DNA of 32,000 nucleotides from Candidatus Baldrarchaeota archaeon (GTDB lineage: Archaea > Asgardarchaeota > Baldrarchaeia > Baldrarchaeales > DXJG01): positions 30,517-62,516 of the forward strand of contig DXJG01000002.1 of NCBI GenBank assembly GCA_019056805.1, given 5' to 3'. How positions within the stretch are numbered: position 1 is the first letter of the stretch; each line of letters begins with the position of its first letter. The notes beneath the pieces are model-generated. The model ran no database searches, had not been told where the DNA came from, and worked only from the letters and a program-made list of their open reading frames with translations. The translations under genes were made by a program, and so were the position numbers. Positions 13,468 to 32,000 of the stretch are shown piece by piece.

Positions 13468-13545
13468 GCGGGGCTAGTCTAGCCTGGTCTAGGACGCCGG
13501 CCTCCCAAGCCGGTTACCCGGGTTCAAATCCCGGGCCCCGCACCA
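13468..13545 (+). tRNA. tRNA-Gly(CCC), intronless, encoded CCA
   Basis: GCGGGGC/GCCCCGC acceptor stem, CCGGC-CT-CCC-AA-GCCGG anticodon arm, CCGGG-TTCAAAT-CCCGG T arm, ACCA end. Confidence 0.97.
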
Positions 13546-14257: not shown

Positions 14258-14514
14258 GAAGATTGGGTATAAATAATAAATATTTGAGAAATGGGGGTTA
14301 TATTTTGTTTTCAGATCTCAAGATCTTCTTCATAGCTCTTGCTCTGTGGGGCTGGATTTCAACATCTTGGGGTAAAGGCATCCAGTACTATTTTTGCGTA
14401 TTAACTAATTAAATATATTACTTTCGGCTAACTCTCCCTTAGTAATACAATTAAAGGCACATGTATCATAATAAAGTAATAGATGGTAGTTAAGAAAAAT
14501 GTGAGGAGACAATT

Positions 14515-15702
14515 TTGTCAAAAGATGTATTCGAAGAAGAACTAGGAAGACCTTCAATCTTTAAAGATGAATCAAAACTTTCAATAGACTACGTACCTCC
14601 CTCGCTTCCACACAGAGAAAAAGAACTTAGAACACTAGTTAGGACTTTTAAAATTTTACTTGAAAAACCTGGAAGCAAAAGTTGTAAGATACTAATTTCT
14701 GGAAGCGTAGGTACAGGAAAAACGGCTTTAGCGAAACTTTTTGGAAAATTGATATCTAACGAAGCACAACAACGCGGTGTTAACCTCCATTATATTCACA
14801 TAAATTGTAGACGAGATAAAACAGAATTTTTAGTCCTAAAAAGAATCGTACATTATTTTAATCCCAGTTTTCCAACAAGGGGTTTTTCTCCAGAGGAACT
14901 TCTTTTCGCCCTACAAAAAACTTTAGATAATCATGAAGCATTTCTCCTAATAACTCTAGATGAACTTGATTTTTATATTAAAAAAAGTGGACCCGAACTA
15001 CTATATGACCTAACAAGACTTTACGAAGAAAAATTGAATGCTACACAAAGAATTTCGTTGATCGGTATAGCGAAAGATATCTCTTGGATGAGTTTAATAG
15101 ATTCTAGTACACTAAGCACGCTACAACAAAATGTTTTATATTTAGCTAGATACACTGCCTCGCAATTAAGAGACATTTTAGAAATGAGAGTAAAAGAAGC
15201 ATTTTATGAAGGATGTGTGTCAGAAGATGCTATTAACTTAATTGCTGATATTGCAGCAGAATGGGGAGACGCTAGATACTCTCTGGAACTTCTTTGGAGA
15301 GCAGGAAAATATGCTGAGGCAGAAGGGGAGTTCAGAGTTTTACCTGAACATGTCAGACAGGCAAATGCTGAAATTCATCCAGTTATAAGAAAAGAAATTT
15401 TACTTGACCTACCCCAACATCATAGACTTCTTCTTCTAGCTTTAGCAAGAAAATTAAAGAAAAACGAAAAAGCGTATGTAACTATGGGTGAAATCGAAGA
15501 TCTCTATCACATCGTATGCGAAGAATATGGGGAAAAACCACGAGGACACACCCAAATATGGAACTATATTCATGATCTAGAAAGCTGTGGAATTATAAAT
15601 ATAAAGCCTTCAGGACCGGGGCTTCGTGGGAAAACAACACTCATAAGTTTACCAGATGTTCCTGCAACACTCTTAGAAAAGGAACTAATGTCCTTACTTT
15701 GA
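14515..15702 (+). CDS. cdc6: Orc1/Cdc6 replication initiator
   Basis: SIDYVPPSLPHRE, Walker A GSVGTGKT, HINCR, Walker B LDELD, GDARYSLELL, C-terminal winged helix. Confidence 0.95.
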   Translation: MSKDVFEEELGRPSIFKDESKLSIDYVPPSLPHREKELRTLVRTFKILLEKPGSKSCKILISGSVGTGKTALAKLFGKLISNEAQQRGVNLHYIHINCRRDKTEFLVLKRIVHYFNPSFPTRGFSPEELLFALQKTLDNHEAFLLITLDELDFYIKKSGPELLYDLTRLYEEKLNATQRISLIGIAKDISWMSLIDSSTLSTLQQNVLYLARYTASQLRDILEMRVKEAFYEGCVSEDAINLIADIAAEWGDARYSLELLWRAGKYAEAEGEFRVLPEHVRQANAEIHPVIRKEILLDLPQHHRLLLLALARKLKKNEKAYVTMGEIEDLYHIVCEEYGEKPRGHTQIWNYIHDLESCGIINIKPSGPGLRGKTTLISLPDVPATLLEKELMSLL

Positions 15703-25776: not shown

Positions 25777-26328
25777 ATGTCGATCTTTCCCGACAATGAA
25801 GACGCCGAGTTAAAAAGACTTTCCTTCAAATTCAAGAATATTAATGTAAAAGTTCGAATACTCGAAGACATACCACAACTATTTTTAGAAGGGAAGAGTA
25901 TAGGGCCCCTGAAAAAAGATGATATCTTAGAACTAAGGCTTTGGCAAGCTATACCGCTAATAGAAGAAGGAAAAGCTAAACTAGAAGAGTTTCCAATTAA
26001 AGTATCATATACTGATATTCATAAATTTGTATGGAAGGAGACGCAGACACCTGAAATTCAAGAATTAAAAAATATTTCATATATAGGGCTTAAACAACGG
26101 GAAAAGTTAATGAAAATGTCAAGTAATGACATCGAGAAGTTTAAAACAGCGTTAAGAGATCTTATCACTGTAAGAACGAGAAAAATCATTAAATTATCTA
26201 TGCAAGATTCAGAATTAATATCGTCTCTTAAACCATTATTACCAGAAGAAAAATTACTTTACGAAAATCTCTCAAAAATATTATCTATTTGGAAACGAAG
26301 GATGTTAGAAGGAGAAGAATATGACTAG
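25777..26328 (+). CDS. gins23: GINS complex subunit Gins23 (B-A domain order)
   Basis: N-terminal beta-rich B domain (VKVRILEDIP...GPLKKDDILELRLWQA), helical C-terminal A domain (R.RKII..S; LLPEE); overlaps the mcm start. Confidence 0.8.
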   Translation: MSIFPDNEDAELKRLSFKFKNINVKVRILEDIPQLFLEGKSIGPLKKDDILELRLWQAIPLIEEGKAKLEEFPIKVSYTDIHKFVWKETQTPEIQELKNISYIGLKQREKLMKMSSNDIEKFKTALRDLITVRTRKIIKLSMQDSELISSLKPLLPEEKLLYENLSKILSIWKRRMLEGEEYD

Positions 26329-29300
26329 CATGAAAGTTGAAGGAATATTTGACCCCATCGGAAGATTTGAAGATTTTATTAAAAGTTATAGAACCGAAGA
26401 GGGTATTTACAAATATCGTAGCATGCTTCAAAAATTATCATTAACGGGAAACAAATCACTTGTAATAGATTTTGATGATTTATTAAGATTCGACCCAGAA
26501 CTTGCAAAAAGAACACTTGACGATCCAGAAGATTACATTGAAGCAGCTTCAAAAGCAATAAAAAATGTCATGGTCATAGAGGATCCTGATTACGCTCAAA
26601 AAATAGAAAAATTCCATCCAAGATTCAAAAACATCCCTAAAAAAATATCACTAAGACAAATAAGATCTCACCATATAGGCCAACTCGTAGCTATAGATGG
26701 TATAATAACAAGAGCAAGCGAGGTTAAACCACAACTAATTGAAGCTGTTTTTGAATGCCAACGATGCCATGAAAAAATGGTTATCCCCCAAGAAGAGGGA
26801 AAATATGTACCACCTGTTCAATGTGTAAATCCAACATGCAGAAGAAAAGGCCCATTTAAACTAATAGTTGAAGAATCAAAGTTCATAGACTGGCAAAAAA
26901 TACGGGTACAAGAAAGACCTGAAGATCTACCACCAGGTCAACTCCCTCGCTTCATCGATGCATATCTTAAAGACGATTTAGTAGATATTGCCAGACCAGG
27001 AGACCGCGTAACAGTAATAGGCATATTAAAAACCTCACCAGAATTTGGACAACGAAGAGGAAAACTAACAACATTCAGAGTATTCATAGAAACAAACTAC
27101 GTAGAACTAACCGAGAAAGAAGCAGAAAGACTAGAAATCACACCAGAAGAAGAACAAAAAATACTAGAACTAGCAAAAGACCAATGGATACACAAAAAAA
27201 TAATACGATCCATCGCACCCTCAATATACGGCTACGACGACATAAAAGAAGCAATAGCACTCCTACTATTCGGAGGAGTACCCAAAACACTCCCAGACGG
27301 AATGAGAATCAGAGGAGAACCAAACATACTCCTAGTAGGAGACCCAGGAACAGCAAAAAGTCAACTACTAAGATACGTCGCAAGAATAGCCCCAAGAGGA
27401 ATCTACACATCCGGAAAAGGATCCACCGCAGCAGGACTCACAGCAGCAGTAATAAGAGACCCAGAAACAGGAGGAATGAGCCTAGAAGCAGGAGCACTAG
27501 TACTCTCCGATCGCGGCGTCGCGTGTTTACATGAGGAGTCAAAGGTTTTAATCGATAATAGAATAGTTAACATAGGAAGTCTTTTCGATGAGCAACGAAA
27601 ATTTAAGGCTCGATCTGGAAACGAAGAAGTTGAAATATGCGAATTAAATACAAATACGGTTTCTATCGACTCTAAGCTTAAAACAATATCTTCAAGATCT
27701 TTATTAATAAGAAGAAAGAAGTATAAAGGCGAGATACTCGAAATAACACTAGCTTCTGGATTTAAAGTGAAAGTTACTCCCGATCATAAACTTCTAGACG
27801 GAAATACATTGGAATGGAGAGATGCTAAAGAATTTAAGAAAGGCGATTTTGTAATTGCTCCTCTAAAGCTTCCTGAGAATAAGGAAAACATATATCTTCT
27901 TGACATTATCCCAGACAATTGGCTCGTCATCCTCGGAAAAGAAGAAAAGATGGAACTCAAAAGAAAAGTACTTGCTATTTATAAAAGTTTGAGCAAATTT
28001 AACAAAAAATACGGTATAACAAAAGATTTTCTTTCTGGTAGAAGTCAAATAAAGGTCGGTAAACTGAGAAAAATATTAAAAGACCTAGGATGCTATGAGG
28101 AATGGAAAAATAAATGCCTTAAATATGGTAGAAAAGCTTCAGGAGAAATGTTAAAAGTTAATAAGATAACTCCGGAGCTAGCATATTTTCTTGGATTTAT
28201 TTACGGCGATGGCGATGTTAAAATTTCGCACAGAAGATCAAGAATATCAATAACACAATCGTTGAAAAACAGAAAACAAATAGAACGTCTTAAGAAGATG
28301 TTTCAAAGTTTTTCACAAAGGAAACTTGGAGAGTATAGAAGAAAAAGTGTAAGTTTAATAAGAGGGCAAAGAGTAGAAAGTGAAAACATCATTTTATACG
28401 CTAACTCTAATTTATTAGCATACATTTACAGCTATGTAGTCGGAGAAGGGCTGAAAAATCTTTTGAAACTGCCTGATGAAGCTTTAAAGGCATTTATCGC
28501 AGGCTGCTTAGATTCAGATGGATGTATTTCAGTCAAGAGAGGGAGAAAATCGGATAAAATCTATGAAACCGTACACATAGAGTTTCAACTATCAAAGAAT
28601 GAAGAGGAAAACAAAGCGTTTATGCTTGCCCTAAGACGATTTGATTGCTTCGCGAAACTTATAAGAGATAAGAGGATAAATAAAATTATAATAACCGGAA
28701 GAGAAGATGTTAGTCGACTTCTAAACGCTATTAAAAAATACAGTGTCAAAATTAAAACTATCCCTACTAGAAAACATTTAGTCTCTTCTCTTAGCGATAA
28801 ACTTCCAAACACTCCAGTTGCAAAAATAAGTACCCACATAATATCCTCCGTAAATAAATCTATCTTGCTTAAAAAAGGTATATGGAGTACTCTCTACGCC
28901 TATAAAAATAAAAGATATCAACCCTCCAGACAACAACTTCTAAAAATCAAAAATGAAATTTTCGACTTCTTGGATGAAAAGCTACGAAATCAAATAGAAC
29001 TACTAACATCCCGAGACTACTTTCTAGACAAGATAGTTGAAATAAAAACAGAGAAATACTCAGGATACGTCTACGATCTTTACGTTCCAAAATACCATAA
29101 CTTTGTATGTGACGGAATTATAGTGCATAATTGCATCGACGAATTTGACAAAATGAACCCGCAAGACAGGGTAGCCATCCATGAAGCGATGGAGCAGCAG
29201 TCTTATCATCCATCCTTTGAAATTACTTTGGCAGATGGAGCCAAGGTTAAAATCGGGGATTTCGTCGATGCCCTTTTCGAACAATTTCCAGATAGAAAAA

Positions 29301-31567
29301 TAGATGGAATAGAATGCGAAATTCTTCAAATATCAGATCTAAATATTGAAATTCTTACCACGGATTTTGATAAAATATTTAAAACAAAAATTAACAGAGT
29401 TAGCAGACATAAAGCACCAAGTCAATTTGTAAGAATACTATATTCAAATGGTAGAGAGATACTTGTAACTCCAGAACATCCCATATTCGTTTTTGAAAAT
29501 GGAGAAATTAAAACTATAAGTGCAGATAAATTAAAAGTTGGGTCCTTTGTTCCGGCAGTTGAAAAAATCGAGTTTAAGGGGAGTTACAAACTAGATACCG
29601 ATGCGGGTAATGGAAGAAAAAAGGTTATACTCCCGGAAGTAATACAAGTTCCAATTGCTAGATTTTTGGGCTACTATGCGGCTGAAGGTTATTCCTATAA
29701 TGGGGCCACTGCAGAAATTGGATTGAGTAATACAAATCAAGATATAATTTTAAACATGAAATCTGTTGTGGAAGAAGCTTTCGGAATAAGTCCAATTGAC
29801 TATGTTGATGTAAATAGAACACTACGTATCGTATCTAAGTCTCTTTACAACTATATGTCTAAAAACTTTCCAGAATTAATGAAAAGAAGTACTGATAAAC
29901 GAATTCCACAAAAAATATTTGTAGCAGGTAAAAGGGAGAGAATAGAGTTTTTAAAGACAGCCTTTGAAGGAGATGGATCCATTGAAAGTGAAGCAATTGC
30001 TTATTCAACCTCTTCAAAAGGTCTTGCCGAAGACTACCAGGACTTGCTTTTAACTCTTGGAATACATTCTCGAATATGCAAAGATGTTTATGATTTACCA
30101 AAAGGGCAATTAAAACGATACCGTTACAAAGTCTACATAACTGGAGATAGCCTGAAAAAATTTGTAGACATTGTCATTCCTGAGCTTAAGTCACACGAAA
30201 AACTCAAAAAACTTGTTGAGAGGAGTGAAAGAATTAACAGAAAGCACGATGTTTTACCACCGTACGTTGGAACGATGATAATAAAATGTCTAAAAAAGCT
30301 TGGCATGCCTTATAACGGTTACTTTAACGAACATATAAACGGAAATTACGGAATAACAAGAGAAGTTGTGAATAGATATTTGAATATCATCGAAAGCAAG
30401 ATCAAAGAACTTGAAAAAGATATCAGAAATATAAATGATCTGCGAAAACTAAGGCAAACAATTGGTTATTCTCAAGCTAAAGTCGCAAAACTGATTAATG
30501 TAGCAAGAAGTACAATTGACTACATGGAAAGAGGCGGTTACGACTCAGAGAAAAGAAATAAACTGATACACGAGTTTAAAACGGCAGTATTAAAGGAAAT
30601 TGAGGAAACAAAAGAAATAGTCAATAAGATCAAAAAGTTAAAGAAATTTAGATGGCTAAGAGTAAAAAACGTAGAAATTGTAGATAACTGTGGAGAATTA
30701 AAAACAGAATGGGTCTATGATGTTACAGTGGAGCCAACAAGGAATTTCATAAGTCATGGACTTATACTTCACAATACAATTAGTATTGCCAAGGCTGGTA
30801 TTATTGCTACTCTTAATGCGCGTACGGCTATTTTGGCTGCTGCTAATCCTAAGCTTGGTAGGTATGATCCTTATAGGCCTCCGGTGGATAATATAAATCT
30901 TCCACCGACAATTTTGTCTCGTTTTGATTTGATTTTTATTTTGACGGATAGGCCTAGGGTGGAGGTAGATAAGCAGGTGGCTGAGCATATTCTTGCTTTG
31001 CACCAGATGAGGACTGTGGAGCCGCCGATACCTCCTGATCTTCTTCGAAAATATATTGCATATGCTAGGAAAAATGTTCATCCAGTGTTAACTCCTGAAG
31101 CTGCACAAAAAATTGAGCAGTTCTATTTGGAGCTCAGAAGTGTAGGTGAGGCTCCAACGTCTCCTGTACCGATAACAGCAAGGCAGTTAGAAGCTTTGAT
31201 TAGATTAGCTGAGGCTCATGCAAGGATGGCTCTCAGAGATAAGGTAACTGTCGAGGATGCTGAGGAAGCAATACGTCTCATGAAGCTGTCCTTGCAACAA
31301 GTAGGAATTGATAGTGAGACAGGTCAACTTGATATAGACCTAATAATGACAGGACACAGTAAATCGCAGAGAGATAAGATGGAAAAAATATTAGATTTAA
31401 TAGACGAATTAGGAGAAGAACCAGACAAAGCTGTTCCAATATCTAAACTCATTGAAAGAGCAAGCATAGAAAACATTGATGAGGATTTCGTTAAAAGAGC
31501 TGTAGAACGAATGAAAAAGGAAGGCATACTCTTCGAACCAAAGCCTGGCTATGTCAAAAAAGCTTAA
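26321..31567 (+). CDS. mcm: MCM replicative helicase precursor (1748 aa) with two inteins; spliced product 687 aa
   Basis: Zn finger CQRC..CVNPTC, Walker A GDPGTAKS, STAAGLTAAV, Walker B CIDEFDKM, AAANP, arginine finger LSRFDL, C-terminal wHTH. Confidence 0.97.
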   Translation: MTSMKVEGIFDPIGRFEDFIKSYRTEEGIYKYRSMLQKLSLTGNKSLVIDFDDLLRFDPELAKRTLDDPEDYIEAASKAIKNVMVIEDPDYAQKIEKFHPRFKNIPKKISLRQIRSHHIGQLVAIDGIITRASEVKPQLIEAVFECQRCHEKMVIPQEEGKYVPPVQCVNPTCRRKGPFKLIVEESKFIDWQKIRVQERPEDLPPGQLPRFIDAYLKDDLVDIARPGDRVTVIGILKTSPEFGQRRGKLTTFRVFIETNYVELTEKEAERLEITPEEEQKILELAKDQWIHKKIIRSIAPSIYGYDDIKEAIALLLFGGVPKTLPDGMRIRGEPNILLVGDPGTAKSQLLRYVARIAPRGIYTSGKGSTAAGLTAAVIRDPETGGMSLEAGALVLSDRGVACLHEESKVLIDNRIVNIGSLFDEQRKFKARSGNEEVEICELNTNTVSIDSKLKTISSRSLLIRRKKYKGEILEITLASGFKVKVTPDHKLLDGNTLEWRDAKEFKKGDFVIAPLKLPENKENIYLLDIIPDNWLVILGKEEKMELKRKVLAIYKSLSKFNKKYGITKDFLSGRSQIKVGKLRKILKDLGCYEEWKNKCLKYGRKASGEMLKVNKITPELAYFLGFIYGDGDVKISHRRSRISITQSLKNRKQIERLKKMFQSFSQRKLGEYRRKSVSLIRGQRVESENIILYANSNLLAYIYSYVVGEGLKNLLKLPDEALKAFIAGCLDSDGCISVKRGRKSDKIYETVHIEFQLSKNEEENKAFMLALRRFDCFAKLIRDKRINKIIITGREDVSRLLNAIKKYSVKIKTIPTRKHLVSSLSDKLPNTPVAKISTHIISSVNKSILLKKGIWSTLYAYKNKRYQPSRQQLLKIKNEIFDFLDEKLRNQIELLTSRDYFLDKIVEIKTEKYSGYVYDLYVPKYHNFVCDGIIVHNCIDEFDKMNPQDRVAIHEAMEQQSYHPSFEITLADGAKVKIGDFVDALFEQFPDRKIDGIECEILQISDLNIEILTTDFDKIFKTKINRVSRHKAPSQFVRILYSNGREILVTPEHPIFVFENGEIKTISADKLKVGSFVPAVEKIEFKGSYKLDTDAGNGRKKVILPEVIQVPIARFLGYYAAEGYSYNGATAEIGLSNTNQDIILNMKSVVEEAFGISPIDYVDVNRTLRIVSKSLYNYMSKNFPELMKRSTDKRIPQKIFVAGKRERIEFLKTAFEGDGSIESEAIAYSTSSKGLAEDYQDLLLTLGIHSRICKDVYDLPKGQLKRYRYKVYITGDSLKKFVDIVIPELKSHEKLKKLVERSERINRKHDVLPPYVGTMIIKCLKKLGMPYNGYFNEHINGNYGITREVVNRYLNIIESKIKELEKDIRNINDLRKLRQTIGYSQAKVAKLINVARSTIDYMERGGYDSEKRNKLIHEFKTAVLKEIEETKEIVNKIKKLKKFRWLRVKNVEIVDNCGELKTEWVYDVTVEPTRNFISHGLILHNTISIAKAGIIATLNARTAILAAANPKLGRYDPYRPPVDNINLPPTILSRFDLIFILTDRPRVEVDKQVAEHILALHQMRTVEPPIPPDLLRKYIAYARKNVHPVLTPEAAQKIEQFYLELRSVGEAPTSPVPITARQLEALIRLAEAHARMALRDKVTVEDAEEAIRLMKLSLQQVGIDSETGQLDIDLIMTGHSKSQRDKMEKILDLIDELGEEPDKAVPISKLIERASIENIDEDFVKRAVERMKKEGILFEPKPGYVKKA
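27524..29131 (+). mobile_element. MCM intein 1 (536 aa) with LAGLIDADG homing endonuclease
   Basis: GVA|CLHEES...VTPDH...IIVHN|CIDEFD; Cys1, His-Asn end, Cys+1; LAGLIDADG blocks YFLGFIYGDG and FIAGCLDSDG. Confidence 0.93.
29201..30775 (+). mobile_element. MCM intein 2 (525 aa) with LAGLIDADG homing endonuclease and internal HTH
   Basis: MEQQ|SYHPSFEI...VTPEHP...LILHN|TISIAKAG; Ser1, His-Asn end, Thr+1; blocks FLGYYAAEG and FLKTAFEGDG. Confidence 0.93.
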
Positions 31568-31586: not shown

Positions 31587-32000
31587 ATTAAAATAAAAGA
31601 ACTGAATATACCTCAAAAAGTGAAAAAAATATTTCTTTCACAGGGAATAACAAGTTTATATCCCCCACAAGAAGAAGCTATCAAAAGGGGCGCTCTTAAC
31701 CATGAAAACCTAGTTTTAGCTATACCAACAGCATCTGGGAAAACTCTTGTAGCAGAACTAGCAATGCTAAAATCGATAATTGAAGAGGGAGGTAAAGCCC
31801 TATATTTAGTGCCCTTAAGAGCTTTGGCCAACGAAAAGTATGATGAATTTAAAAAATACGAACAAATAGGAGTAAAAGTAGCAGTCTCTACAGGCGATTA
31901 TGATTCATCAGATAAATGGCTCGAAAACTATGATATTATAATTTGCTCCGTTGACTATAACGAACCTATAGTTATCAAGGAAAACGGGGTAGTAAAAAGT
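31587..32000 (+). CDS. hel308: Hel308/Ski2-like SF2 DNA helicase, 3'-truncated by the window edge; absent from the ORF track
   Basis: Frame reads (M)KIKELNIPQKVKKIFLSQGITSLYPPQEEAI...LAIPTASGKTLVAE...YLVPLRALANEK...STGDYD; Q motif, motif I and Ia. Probable ATT start after in-frame TAG 31581-31583. Confidence 0.9.
   Translation, partial: MKIKELNIPQKVKKIFLSQGITSLYPPQEEAIKRGALNHENLVLAIPTASGKTLVAELAMLKSIIEEGGKALYLVPLRALANEKYDEFKKYEQIGVKVAVSTGDYDSSDKWLENYDIIICSVDYNEPIVIKENGVVKS
31947..32000 (+). mobile_element. N-terminal start of a probable intein in Hel308
   Basis: After DIIIC the expected TxEK of motif Ib is replaced by SVDYNEPIVIKENGVVKS, an intein block A pattern; only 18 codons are visible. 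Confidence 0.7.

Follow-up and report, generated by a model that had tools for sequence, protein, structure and literature searches.

Break repair and break-induced replication in yeast produce strand-coordinated mutation clusters, and vertebrate mitochondrial DNA has a strand asymmetry that is graded by the time spent single-stranded. Studies of yeast mitochondria have reportedly found diversity gradients beside mobile introns. In the homing of mobile introns and inteins, the flanking exons or exteins are co-converted with the element (PMC3192709). The flanks of transfer RNA (tRNA) genes are transcription-associated mutation hot spots, where an excess of transitions extends over tens of bases at a 7-10 fold rate (PMC6130373). 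Skew jumps mark replication origins in bacteria and archaea, and N-shaped skew domains are present in mammalian genomes (review, PMC3269012). Here we describe a locus that resembles each of these systems in some respects and differs from each in others: the gene of the replicative helicase MCM (mcm) of a Candidatus Baldrarchaeota archaeon, which is interrupted by two inteins. The window is a stretch of 32,000 nucleotides (nt) of assembly GCA_019056805.1 (contig DXJG01000002.1, positions 30,517 to 62,516 of the forward strand), and positions given without a contig name are positions within it. Literature searches for codon skew at inteins or exteins, and for tRNA-anchored skew in archaea, returned no description of either.

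The pair of inteins is flanked by two extein arms with mirror-image silent-site composition. Third positions in the upstream arm are A or C in 167 of 173 codons at 26990-27508 (A124, C43, G4, T2); those in the downstream arm are G or T in 77 of 83 codons at 30779-31027 (T47, G30, A4, C2). T accounts for 44 of 360 nt upstream and 83 of 240 nt downstream. The switch falls within the 69-nt extein segment between the inteins (the mini-extein), where third positions are A or C in nine of the first 12 codons and G or T in six of the last seven. An earlier note on this DNA had reported these numbers from hand counts, had placed the switch in this segment, and had described the intein bodies as mixed; every count was reproduced exactly, and third positions are indeed neutral in both inteins. 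We express such switches as a flip, defined as the A/C fraction at third positions in the 50 codons upstream minus that in the 50 codons downstream. Random in-gene positions give a null distribution with a standard deviation of 0.107 and 99th and 99.9th percentiles of 0.24 and 0.34, respectively. The flip across the mcm intein pair is 0.84. The A/C content of the upstream arm is reached in only 10 of 268,015 genome windows of 173 codons, which belong to two genes. The skew at mcm is not due to chance.

The composition of the arms indicates how the skew accumulated. Four-fold sites comprise 71 A, 20 C, and neither G nor T in the upstream arm, as compared with 23 T, 11 G, 3 A, and 1 C in the downstream arm. 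The same exclusion is apparent in codon choice: leucine is encoded by CTA/CTC upstream and TTG/CTT downstream, isoleucine by ATA/ATC upstream and ATT downstream, and arginine by AGA upstream and AGG/CGT downstream. The A:C ratio at four-fold sites of the upstream arm (78:22) equals that of the genome itself. Plus-strand G and T are excluded from this arm wherever the protein permits, and the remaining letters have equilibrated. As the arms are at compositional equilibrium, they point to a long-acting pressure rather than one event. The inteins do not share this composition, with A/C fractions of 0.56-0.58 at the ends of intein 2, and their edges are sharp: intein 2 is neutral up to its last codon between saturated flanks.

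The reading frame of mcm is intact and encodes a canonical MCM protein. Pfam identifies MCM_N, MCM_OB, the MCM P-loop, MCM_lid, MCM_WH_arc, and Intein_splicing (E 5e-93 to 2e-6), giving the domain order of an MCM replicative helicase (MCM_N, OB, AAA+ P-loop, lid, winged helix). Walker A (GDPGTAKS), Walker B (DEFDKM), and arginine finger (SRFD) motifs are evident in the translation. Both inserts have the splice junctions of inteins (IVHN/C for intein 1 and LILHN/T for intein 2) and match Intein_splicing (E = 3e-23 and 6e-21, respectively). They also match LAGLIDADG_3 (E = 8e-8 and 4e-20), to which intein 2 adds HTH_3; hence each carries a predicted LAGLIDADG homing endonuclease domain. By translation, the N-extein ends at 27523 and the C-extein begins at 30776. 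The upstream A/C run extends to 27520, and the downstream arm is back at genome-typical values by ~31090. The centre of the flip in this genome is the insertion site of intein 2, with polarity turning ~20 nt before it in the mini-extein. A search of the mcm region for RNA genes found none. The coordinates of the features are collected in Table 1. Two further open reading frames (ORFs) in the table are by-products of the skew: the out-of-frame one in the upstream arm is no gene and results from T depletion, which leaves few stop codons, and the antisense one over the downstream arm arises because the minus strand is T-poor there.

Table 1. Features of the mcm locus, with positions in the window (aa, amino acids)
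Feature	Position	Strand	Basis
mcm gene, 1748 codons, two inteins within	26321..31567	+	ORF and Pfam
Upstream A/C arm, end of N-extein (OB-fold end, Walker A, as far as DRGVA)	26990..27523	+	third positions
Out-of-frame ORF of 116 codons, wholly inside the T-poor A/C arm	27184..27534	+	ORF list
Intein 1, 536 aa, CLHEES...IVHN, LAGLIDADG, unskewed, inside A/C arm	27524..29131	+	translation, Pfam
Mini-extein, 69 nt, CIDEFDKMNPQDRVAIHEAMEQQ, Walker B	29132..29200	+	translation, third positions
Intein 2, 525 aa, SYHPSF...LILHN, LAGLIDADG_3 and HTH, unskewed	29201..30775	+	Pfam, translation
Antisense ORF of 127 codons over the G/T arm	30698..31081	-	ORF list
Downstream G/T arm, start of C-extein (TISIAKAG...SRFDLIF...)	30776..31027	+	third positions

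The skew follows the DNA strand, not the gene. We scanned the whole draft assembly (G000; 1.92 Mb in 18 contigs, ~35% GC, 3.6% estimated contamination) and found ~120 blocks, 52 kb in total, that are as skewed as an mcm arm. The impression in the earlier note that no other gene was comparable therefore held within the window but not across the genome. Neighbouring genes on opposite strands share one plus-strand skew, also over tens of kilobases (kb). For example, plus-strand genes at 45.7-47.2 kb of contig C18 have A/C fractions of 0.14-0.23, and the adjoining minus-strand genes at 47.4-51.4 kb have fractions of 0.83-0.89. Across 1,682 ORFs, codon positions 1 and 2 are correlated with position 3 (rho 0.50 and 0.42); in G/T blocks, proteins under weak constraint are enriched in Phe, Val, Gly, and Cys; and the skew extends into non-coding DNA. 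Since genes of both directions share the skew of their strand and positions 1 and 2 follow it, the cause is a mutational pressure filtered by selection rather than translational selection.

These observations make it very improbable that selection created the arms, whether by tuning the speed of translation around inteins through codon choice, by avoiding endonuclease sites, or by favouring arms that pair in mRNA or single-stranded DNA. Selection would be in line with the perfect retention of the amino-acid sequence while silent sites change, as well as with the complementary composition of the arms. However, the skew is set by the strand and not by reading direction, it reaches positions 1 and 2 and non-coding DNA, and arms of 250-530 nt are far longer than an endonuclease site. 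The suggestion in the earlier note that the arms fold together fails on energetic grounds, as the arm-to-arm duplex energy is ordinary relative to codon-order shuffles (z = -0.17; duplexfold).

Polarity is constant across the genome. In 300-nt windows, 12 sharp switches from A/C to G/T were detected and none in the reverse direction; this polarity is unchanged by reverse complementation. Nine of the 12 lie on tRNA genes; two of these genes were identifiable only as tRNA-like and intron-containing. When tRNA genes were called with the Rfam tRNA model, 24 of the 25 testable ones flipped from A/C to G/T, whatever their orientation. Local ARAGORN runs found only 11-18 tRNA genes, a tally that is too low because most tRNA genes of this genome have introns (gene length 90-190 nt); two were seen only as weak matches to the transfer-messenger RNA (tmRNA) model. 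Standard tRNA counts for this lineage will thus be underestimates. No tRNA or other Rfam RNA was detectable at the remaining three sharp flips (C9:550976, C8:6155, C18:52294), one of which adjoins an intergenic CCTTATAAGG palindrome. The skew process is therefore not specific to inteins: they are one class of anchor, and tRNA genes provide most of the others. This partly fulfils a condition under which the earlier note would have considered its interpretation refuted, namely that blocks of equal strength be widespread in the genome regardless of inteins.

The prominence of tRNA genes brings transcription-associated mutagenesis into consideration. In this case, divergent transcription starting near the inteins would leave the non-template strand exposed to either side, a mechanism proposed for the flanks of eukaryotic tRNA genes, and would yield the observed sign. 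In its favour, tRNA genes, the most frequent anchors, are strongly transcribed and tend to have the stronger arm on their upstream side, and raised mutation in tRNA flanks is documented (PMC6130373). We still regard this explanation as quite improbable. The sign of the skew does not follow gene direction: genes of both directions share one strand skew over tens of kb, and arms of opposite sign occur within one gene and one transcript at mcm, where there is no RNA gene. To form the upstream arm, strong antisense transcription would be required through intein 1, which is unskewed. The mutagenesis described in tRNA-gene flanks also lacks a mirror skew on the kb scale, and it cannot give opposite signs within the mcm transcript.

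The pattern otherwise resembles that at origins of replication, in that the composition jumps from A/C to G/T, sharp changes occur in the upward direction only, and the skew weakens between anchors. An upward jump in G/T skew, as at an archaeal oriC, is present at mcm. It differs in magnitude, scale, and context: third-position skew at mcm is far higher (~0.9), the arms are 0.25-0.5 kb long and lie inside a coding gene, and a neutral selfish insert of 3.2 kb occupies the centre of the flip. The genome has orc1/cdc6 genes at C9:45-46 kb (~14.5-15.7 kb in the window) and on contig C6, the nearest of which is 11 kb from the flip; the flip is inside the mcm coding sequence and not in a non-coding region next to orc1/cdc6 (repeat boxes were not searched for).

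This likeness would suit a scenario in which synthesis starts or restarts at fixed sites for reasons unrelated to an endonuclease, with which the inteins merely coincide. Break-induced replication after fork collapse, R-loop priming, and cryptic origins are variant routes to such synthesis. The exposed strand of outward forks, either the lagging template or the nascent strand of break-induced replication, would be deaminated, producing C>T and A>G changes. We judge this possible but rather unlikely. In its favour are the exactly origin-like polarity with sharp jumps upward only, the near-universal use of tRNA genes as anchors, arms of ~40 kb that decay with distance on one contig as in N-domains, and the joint elevation of C>T and A>G as in vertebrate mitochondrial DNA. 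Yet such a process should skew the intein too, and intein 2 is neutral between saturated flanks despite 15% silent divergence between this genome and its congener G001. The arms at inteins also decay within ~600 nt, much faster than those at tRNA genes, and the distribution of flips across mcm alleles described below follows the inteins.

Flips recur at other inteins of the genome. Taken singly, mcm inteins 1 and 2 contribute flips of 0.42 and 0.48. The corresponding values are 0.74 and 0.54 for the two inteins of an Lhr-like helicase, 0.46 for a radical-SAM protein, 0.32 for a PolB protein (polB-a), 0.24 for reverse gyrase, 0.12 for Hel308, and -0.02 for a second PolB protein (polB-b). In total, six of nine inteins flip above the 99th percentile of the null (0.24). 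The Lhr-like helicase gene (C9:373189-380730, L076) spans 2513 codons with two LAGLIDADG inteins; it is A/C-rich before and G/T-rich after each of them, such that the sign of the skew changes three times within the gene. The Hel308-type helicase gene is directly downstream of mcm (31620-32000 and beyond; C9:62136-65243), and its 310-aa intein has a winged-helix domain in place of LAGLIDADG; its flip of 0.12 is taken as none. An endonuclease domain is no clean predictor of a flip, as the nuclease-less Hel308 intein is flat and the LAGLIDADG-bearing polB-b intein is flat too. In the complete genome of an archaeon from another family (G015), at least five of ~14 inteins flip with the same sign. 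These include the mcm inteins, located at the Walker A site and at the MEQQ/T site, where the A/C fraction is 0.87 upstream and 0.08-0.13 downstream over more than 240 codons.

We also surveyed 69 further mcm alleles from Asgard and TACK archaea, using homologous windows before Walker A and after SIAKAG. Three of eight intein-bearing alleles flip by 0.85-0.98, and 61 intein-free alleles range from -0.23 to +0.27 with one outlier (Mann-Whitney p = 0.0025; relatives are not independent). Flips are enriched at inteins in two families and in intein-bearing mcm alleles; the earlier note had proposed to compare other intein sites and intein-bearing with intein-free alleles. The note had also reasoned that a flip in intein-free alleles of lineages never invaded would refute a link to inteins. 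Sixty of the 61 are without one, and the exception (L124, CAYFXC010000001.1) is a close relative of three flipping alleles. At codons ~330-350 of this allele, the A/C run ends and the G/T run starts within GDPGTAK/S; this position, immediately behind the lysine of Walker A, is the insertion site known as MCM-a (PMC10643990). The flip of L124 has the appearance of a mark left at a homing site that is empty or has been vacated. Across lineages, the flip thus moves among known or occupied intein sites, which counts against anchors that are fixed irrespective of homing. Intein-free mcm alleles of Jordarchaeia (L006, L116/L119) have an A/C stretch to codon ~455-480 that turns near the arginine-finger motif SRFDLIF, a position for which no named intein site could be assigned. 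The intein-free, unskewed mcm of G004, from the same order, was considered as a control and set aside as uninformative, given that tRNA flips are weak in that genome (mean 0.07, none above 0.3).

Two further genomes of the same genus, G001 and G003, demonstrate turnover of the inteins between the arms. They have 91% identical MCM and the same two skewed arms as this genome, around a different set of inteins. Both lack an intein at the site of intein 1, where DRGVACIDEFDKM is continuous, and have instead an intein after GSTAAGL that forms an unskewed insert within the A/C arm. Intein 2 is common to both, as a full-length intein of 525 aa in G001 and a mini-intein of 177 aa in G003. Silent third-position differences between these two genomes amount to 3/199 (1.5%) in the distal N-extein, 19/254 (7.5%) in the arms and middle extein (p = 0.003 versus the distal N-extein), and 61/565 and 21/136 (11-15%) in the two inteins (p ~1e-6). 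The mcm inteins of G001 (L031) and G003 (L032) differ by 12-23% at the protein level. The inteins thus turn over much faster than the host gene, and their flanks share part of that history. MCM inteins are also often gained and lost in Haloarchaea (PMC10643990).

This gradient is the one expected from co-conversion during homing. As in the known cases, the effect is centred on the homing site, decays over hundreds of bases, and leaves flanks that share history with the element, with silent divergence falling from intein to arms to distal extein. The difference is in the outcome: known cases involve imported polymorphism or raised diversity, whereas mcm has undergone near-total, mirror-image, strand-specific silent recoding to equilibrium. 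The proposal in the earlier note of a co-conversion tract from a donor with extreme skew is thus upheld in its first part only; no exotic donor is needed, because the arms of each lineage keep their own base composition. It is accordingly improbable that the arms were imported ready-made with the inteins from an extremely skewed donor or mobile element, with no mutagenesis in this lineage. The divergence pattern does read as if flanks travel with inteins. However, the inteins themselves are unskewed, the arms match host composition (A and T dominate in G000, C and G in G014 and G015), and the same skew is present at tRNA genes genome-wide. Moreover, the A/C arms of G000 and G001 have diverged mainly by A<->C changes with G and T excluded from both; hence the pressure continued in both lineages. 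In G003, whose intein 2 has lost its nuclease, the G/T arm is slightly eroded (15/83 codons ending in A or C, compared with 7/83), which is at most a weak hint.

An assembly chimera, the last possibility raised in the earlier note, or a sequencing artefact is of negligible probability. The genome is a metagenome-assembled draft in 18 contigs with some estimated contamination, but the same arms are found in two other assemblies of the genus and three further lineages, replicating the pattern in five other assemblies. In addition, the frame is intact, the MCM is canonical, and damage artefacts would not spare non-synonymous sites.

Any explanation must account for a mutational skew of constant polarity and sharp boundaries that is associated with inteins and homing sites. 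We give about even credence to the idea that the arms are the cumulative mutational scar of repeated recombinational repair from an intein homing site in mcm, namely that of intein 2 in this genome and also the Walker A site in relatives. The homing endonuclease would cut an empty allele, after which the 5' ends would be resected. Each 3' end would then copy the intein from the donor and continue outward over the resected flank, such that the plus strand would be new downstream, the minus strand new upstream, and both strands new within the intein. If the new strand gains G and T, the plus strand would become A/C-rich upstream and G/T-rich downstream, while the intein would stay neutral with sharp edges because both of its strands are newly made. 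On both sides of the flip, the G/T-rich strand is the one whose 5'-to-3' direction points away from the anchor. Selection on this essential helicase would remove amino-acid changes, so that only silent sites saturate, and saturation itself would be explained if co-converted flanks ride with the intein through many rounds of homing.

The gain of G and T could originate from G.T wobble misincorporation, generally the commonest polymerase error, or from deamination of a displaced nascent strand. The two-state excess rate for A>G, with transversions ignored, is ~0.2-0.7 of that for C>T. Vertebrate mitochondrial DNA is similar in that C>T and A>G accrue together on one strand, most strongly at silent sites and in a graded manner. 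It is dissimilar in having a one-directional gradient over the whole genome under a defined replication mode, whereas the skew here is local, two-sided, and associated with many anchors. Mutagenesis during break repair provides a closer parallel, as mutations crowd around the break, are strand-coordinated, and switch strand at the break. It too differs: the mcm arms are an evolutionary steady state and no single cluster, with G/T on the outward-synthesised strand, and clusters that stem from damaged 3' tails place C>T changes on the top strand to the left of the break, which is the reverse of the sign at mcm. Damage to such tails (C>T, A>G) was rejected as the main source, given that it predicts a plus strand that is G/T-rich left of the break and the upstream arm is A/C-rich. 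Archaeal polymerases stall at template uracil and hypoxanthine, which would help to suppress this source. Of the causes offered in the earlier note, a strand-specific scar with origin-like polarity linked to homing is the best supported, because the skew follows the strand, drags positions 1 and 2, switches with origin-like sign only, and is enriched at inteins; the chemistry that the note assumed has the wrong sign for resected 3' tails.

Several points count against this repair-based explanation. We infer the break, the repair geometry, and the source of error; neither a break, an empty allele, nor a repair intermediate was observed. Saturation needs very many events or very error-prone synthesis. 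In the three genomes of the genus the intein is fixed, making cleavage there impossible today, yet the A<->C divergence of the arms implies that the pressure continues. The LAGLIDADG inteins of polB-b (-0.02) and reverse gyrase (0.24) have no clear flip, and several intein-bearing mcm alleles of other lineages are flat. The ratio of A>G to C>T does not discriminate between misincorporation and deamination. Finally, most anchors are tRNA genes with no known endonuclease; inteins and tRNA genes could therefore share a cause that has nothing to do with homing. The polarity shared with tRNA genes suggests a general process linked to breaks or restarts, of which homing is one trigger.

A broader interpretation, which we advance tentatively and with less than even confidence, is that break-triggered synthesis in Asgard and related archaea is strand-biased and error-prone to such a degree that the starting points and reach of repair or restart synthesis can be read, strand by strand, as a fossil. 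If so, homing endonucleases would recode several hundred bases on each side of their sites, with strand polarity recording the geometry of repair synthesis. Inteins would thereby rewrite the silent sites of essential host genes and, in looser proteins, amino acids too. Sequence alone would then reveal where homing occurs or has occurred, even at an empty site like that at Walker A in L124, repair-tract lengths would be measurable in uncultured archaea, and the error signature of archaeal recombination machinery would become open to study. The signature at tRNA genes would likewise show where recombination-dependent restart of replication takes place naturally in the prokaryotes most closely related to eukaryotes. 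The polarity common to inteins and tRNA genes ties the effect of a selfish element to a wider and still unexplained feature of Asgard and TACK genomes. For practical purposes, analyses of codon usage, gene transfer, and phylogeny that rely on marker genes such as mcm, polB, and reverse gyrase are distorted by local skew of this strength, which also gives rise to spurious ORFs.

Three other regions of the genome are relevant to the distribution of anchors. A CDC48-type AAA ATPase gene (C9:105203-107567) is broken by a run of N; its D1 domain has an A/C fraction of 0.08 over 60 codons with no flip visible, and an intein or other anchor could hide in the masked stretch. Within the window, a tRNA-Gly(CCC) gene (13468-13545) adjoins the orc1/cdc6 gene (~14500-15700). 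The flip there is weak (left -0.09, right +0.16), and this candidate origin region is no strong skew anchor. The largest skew domain of the genome spans C18:12000-88000 and decays with distance from its centre. It comprises ~30 kb of A/C-rich sequence, including herA-mre11-rad50 at A/C fractions of 0.84-0.91, a central unskewed island of 4 kb with ORFs lacking Pfam matches (C18:41000-46500, L073), and, on the far side, ~40 kb of G/T-rich sequence beginning with an AAA_15 ATPase and toxin-antitoxin-like genes.

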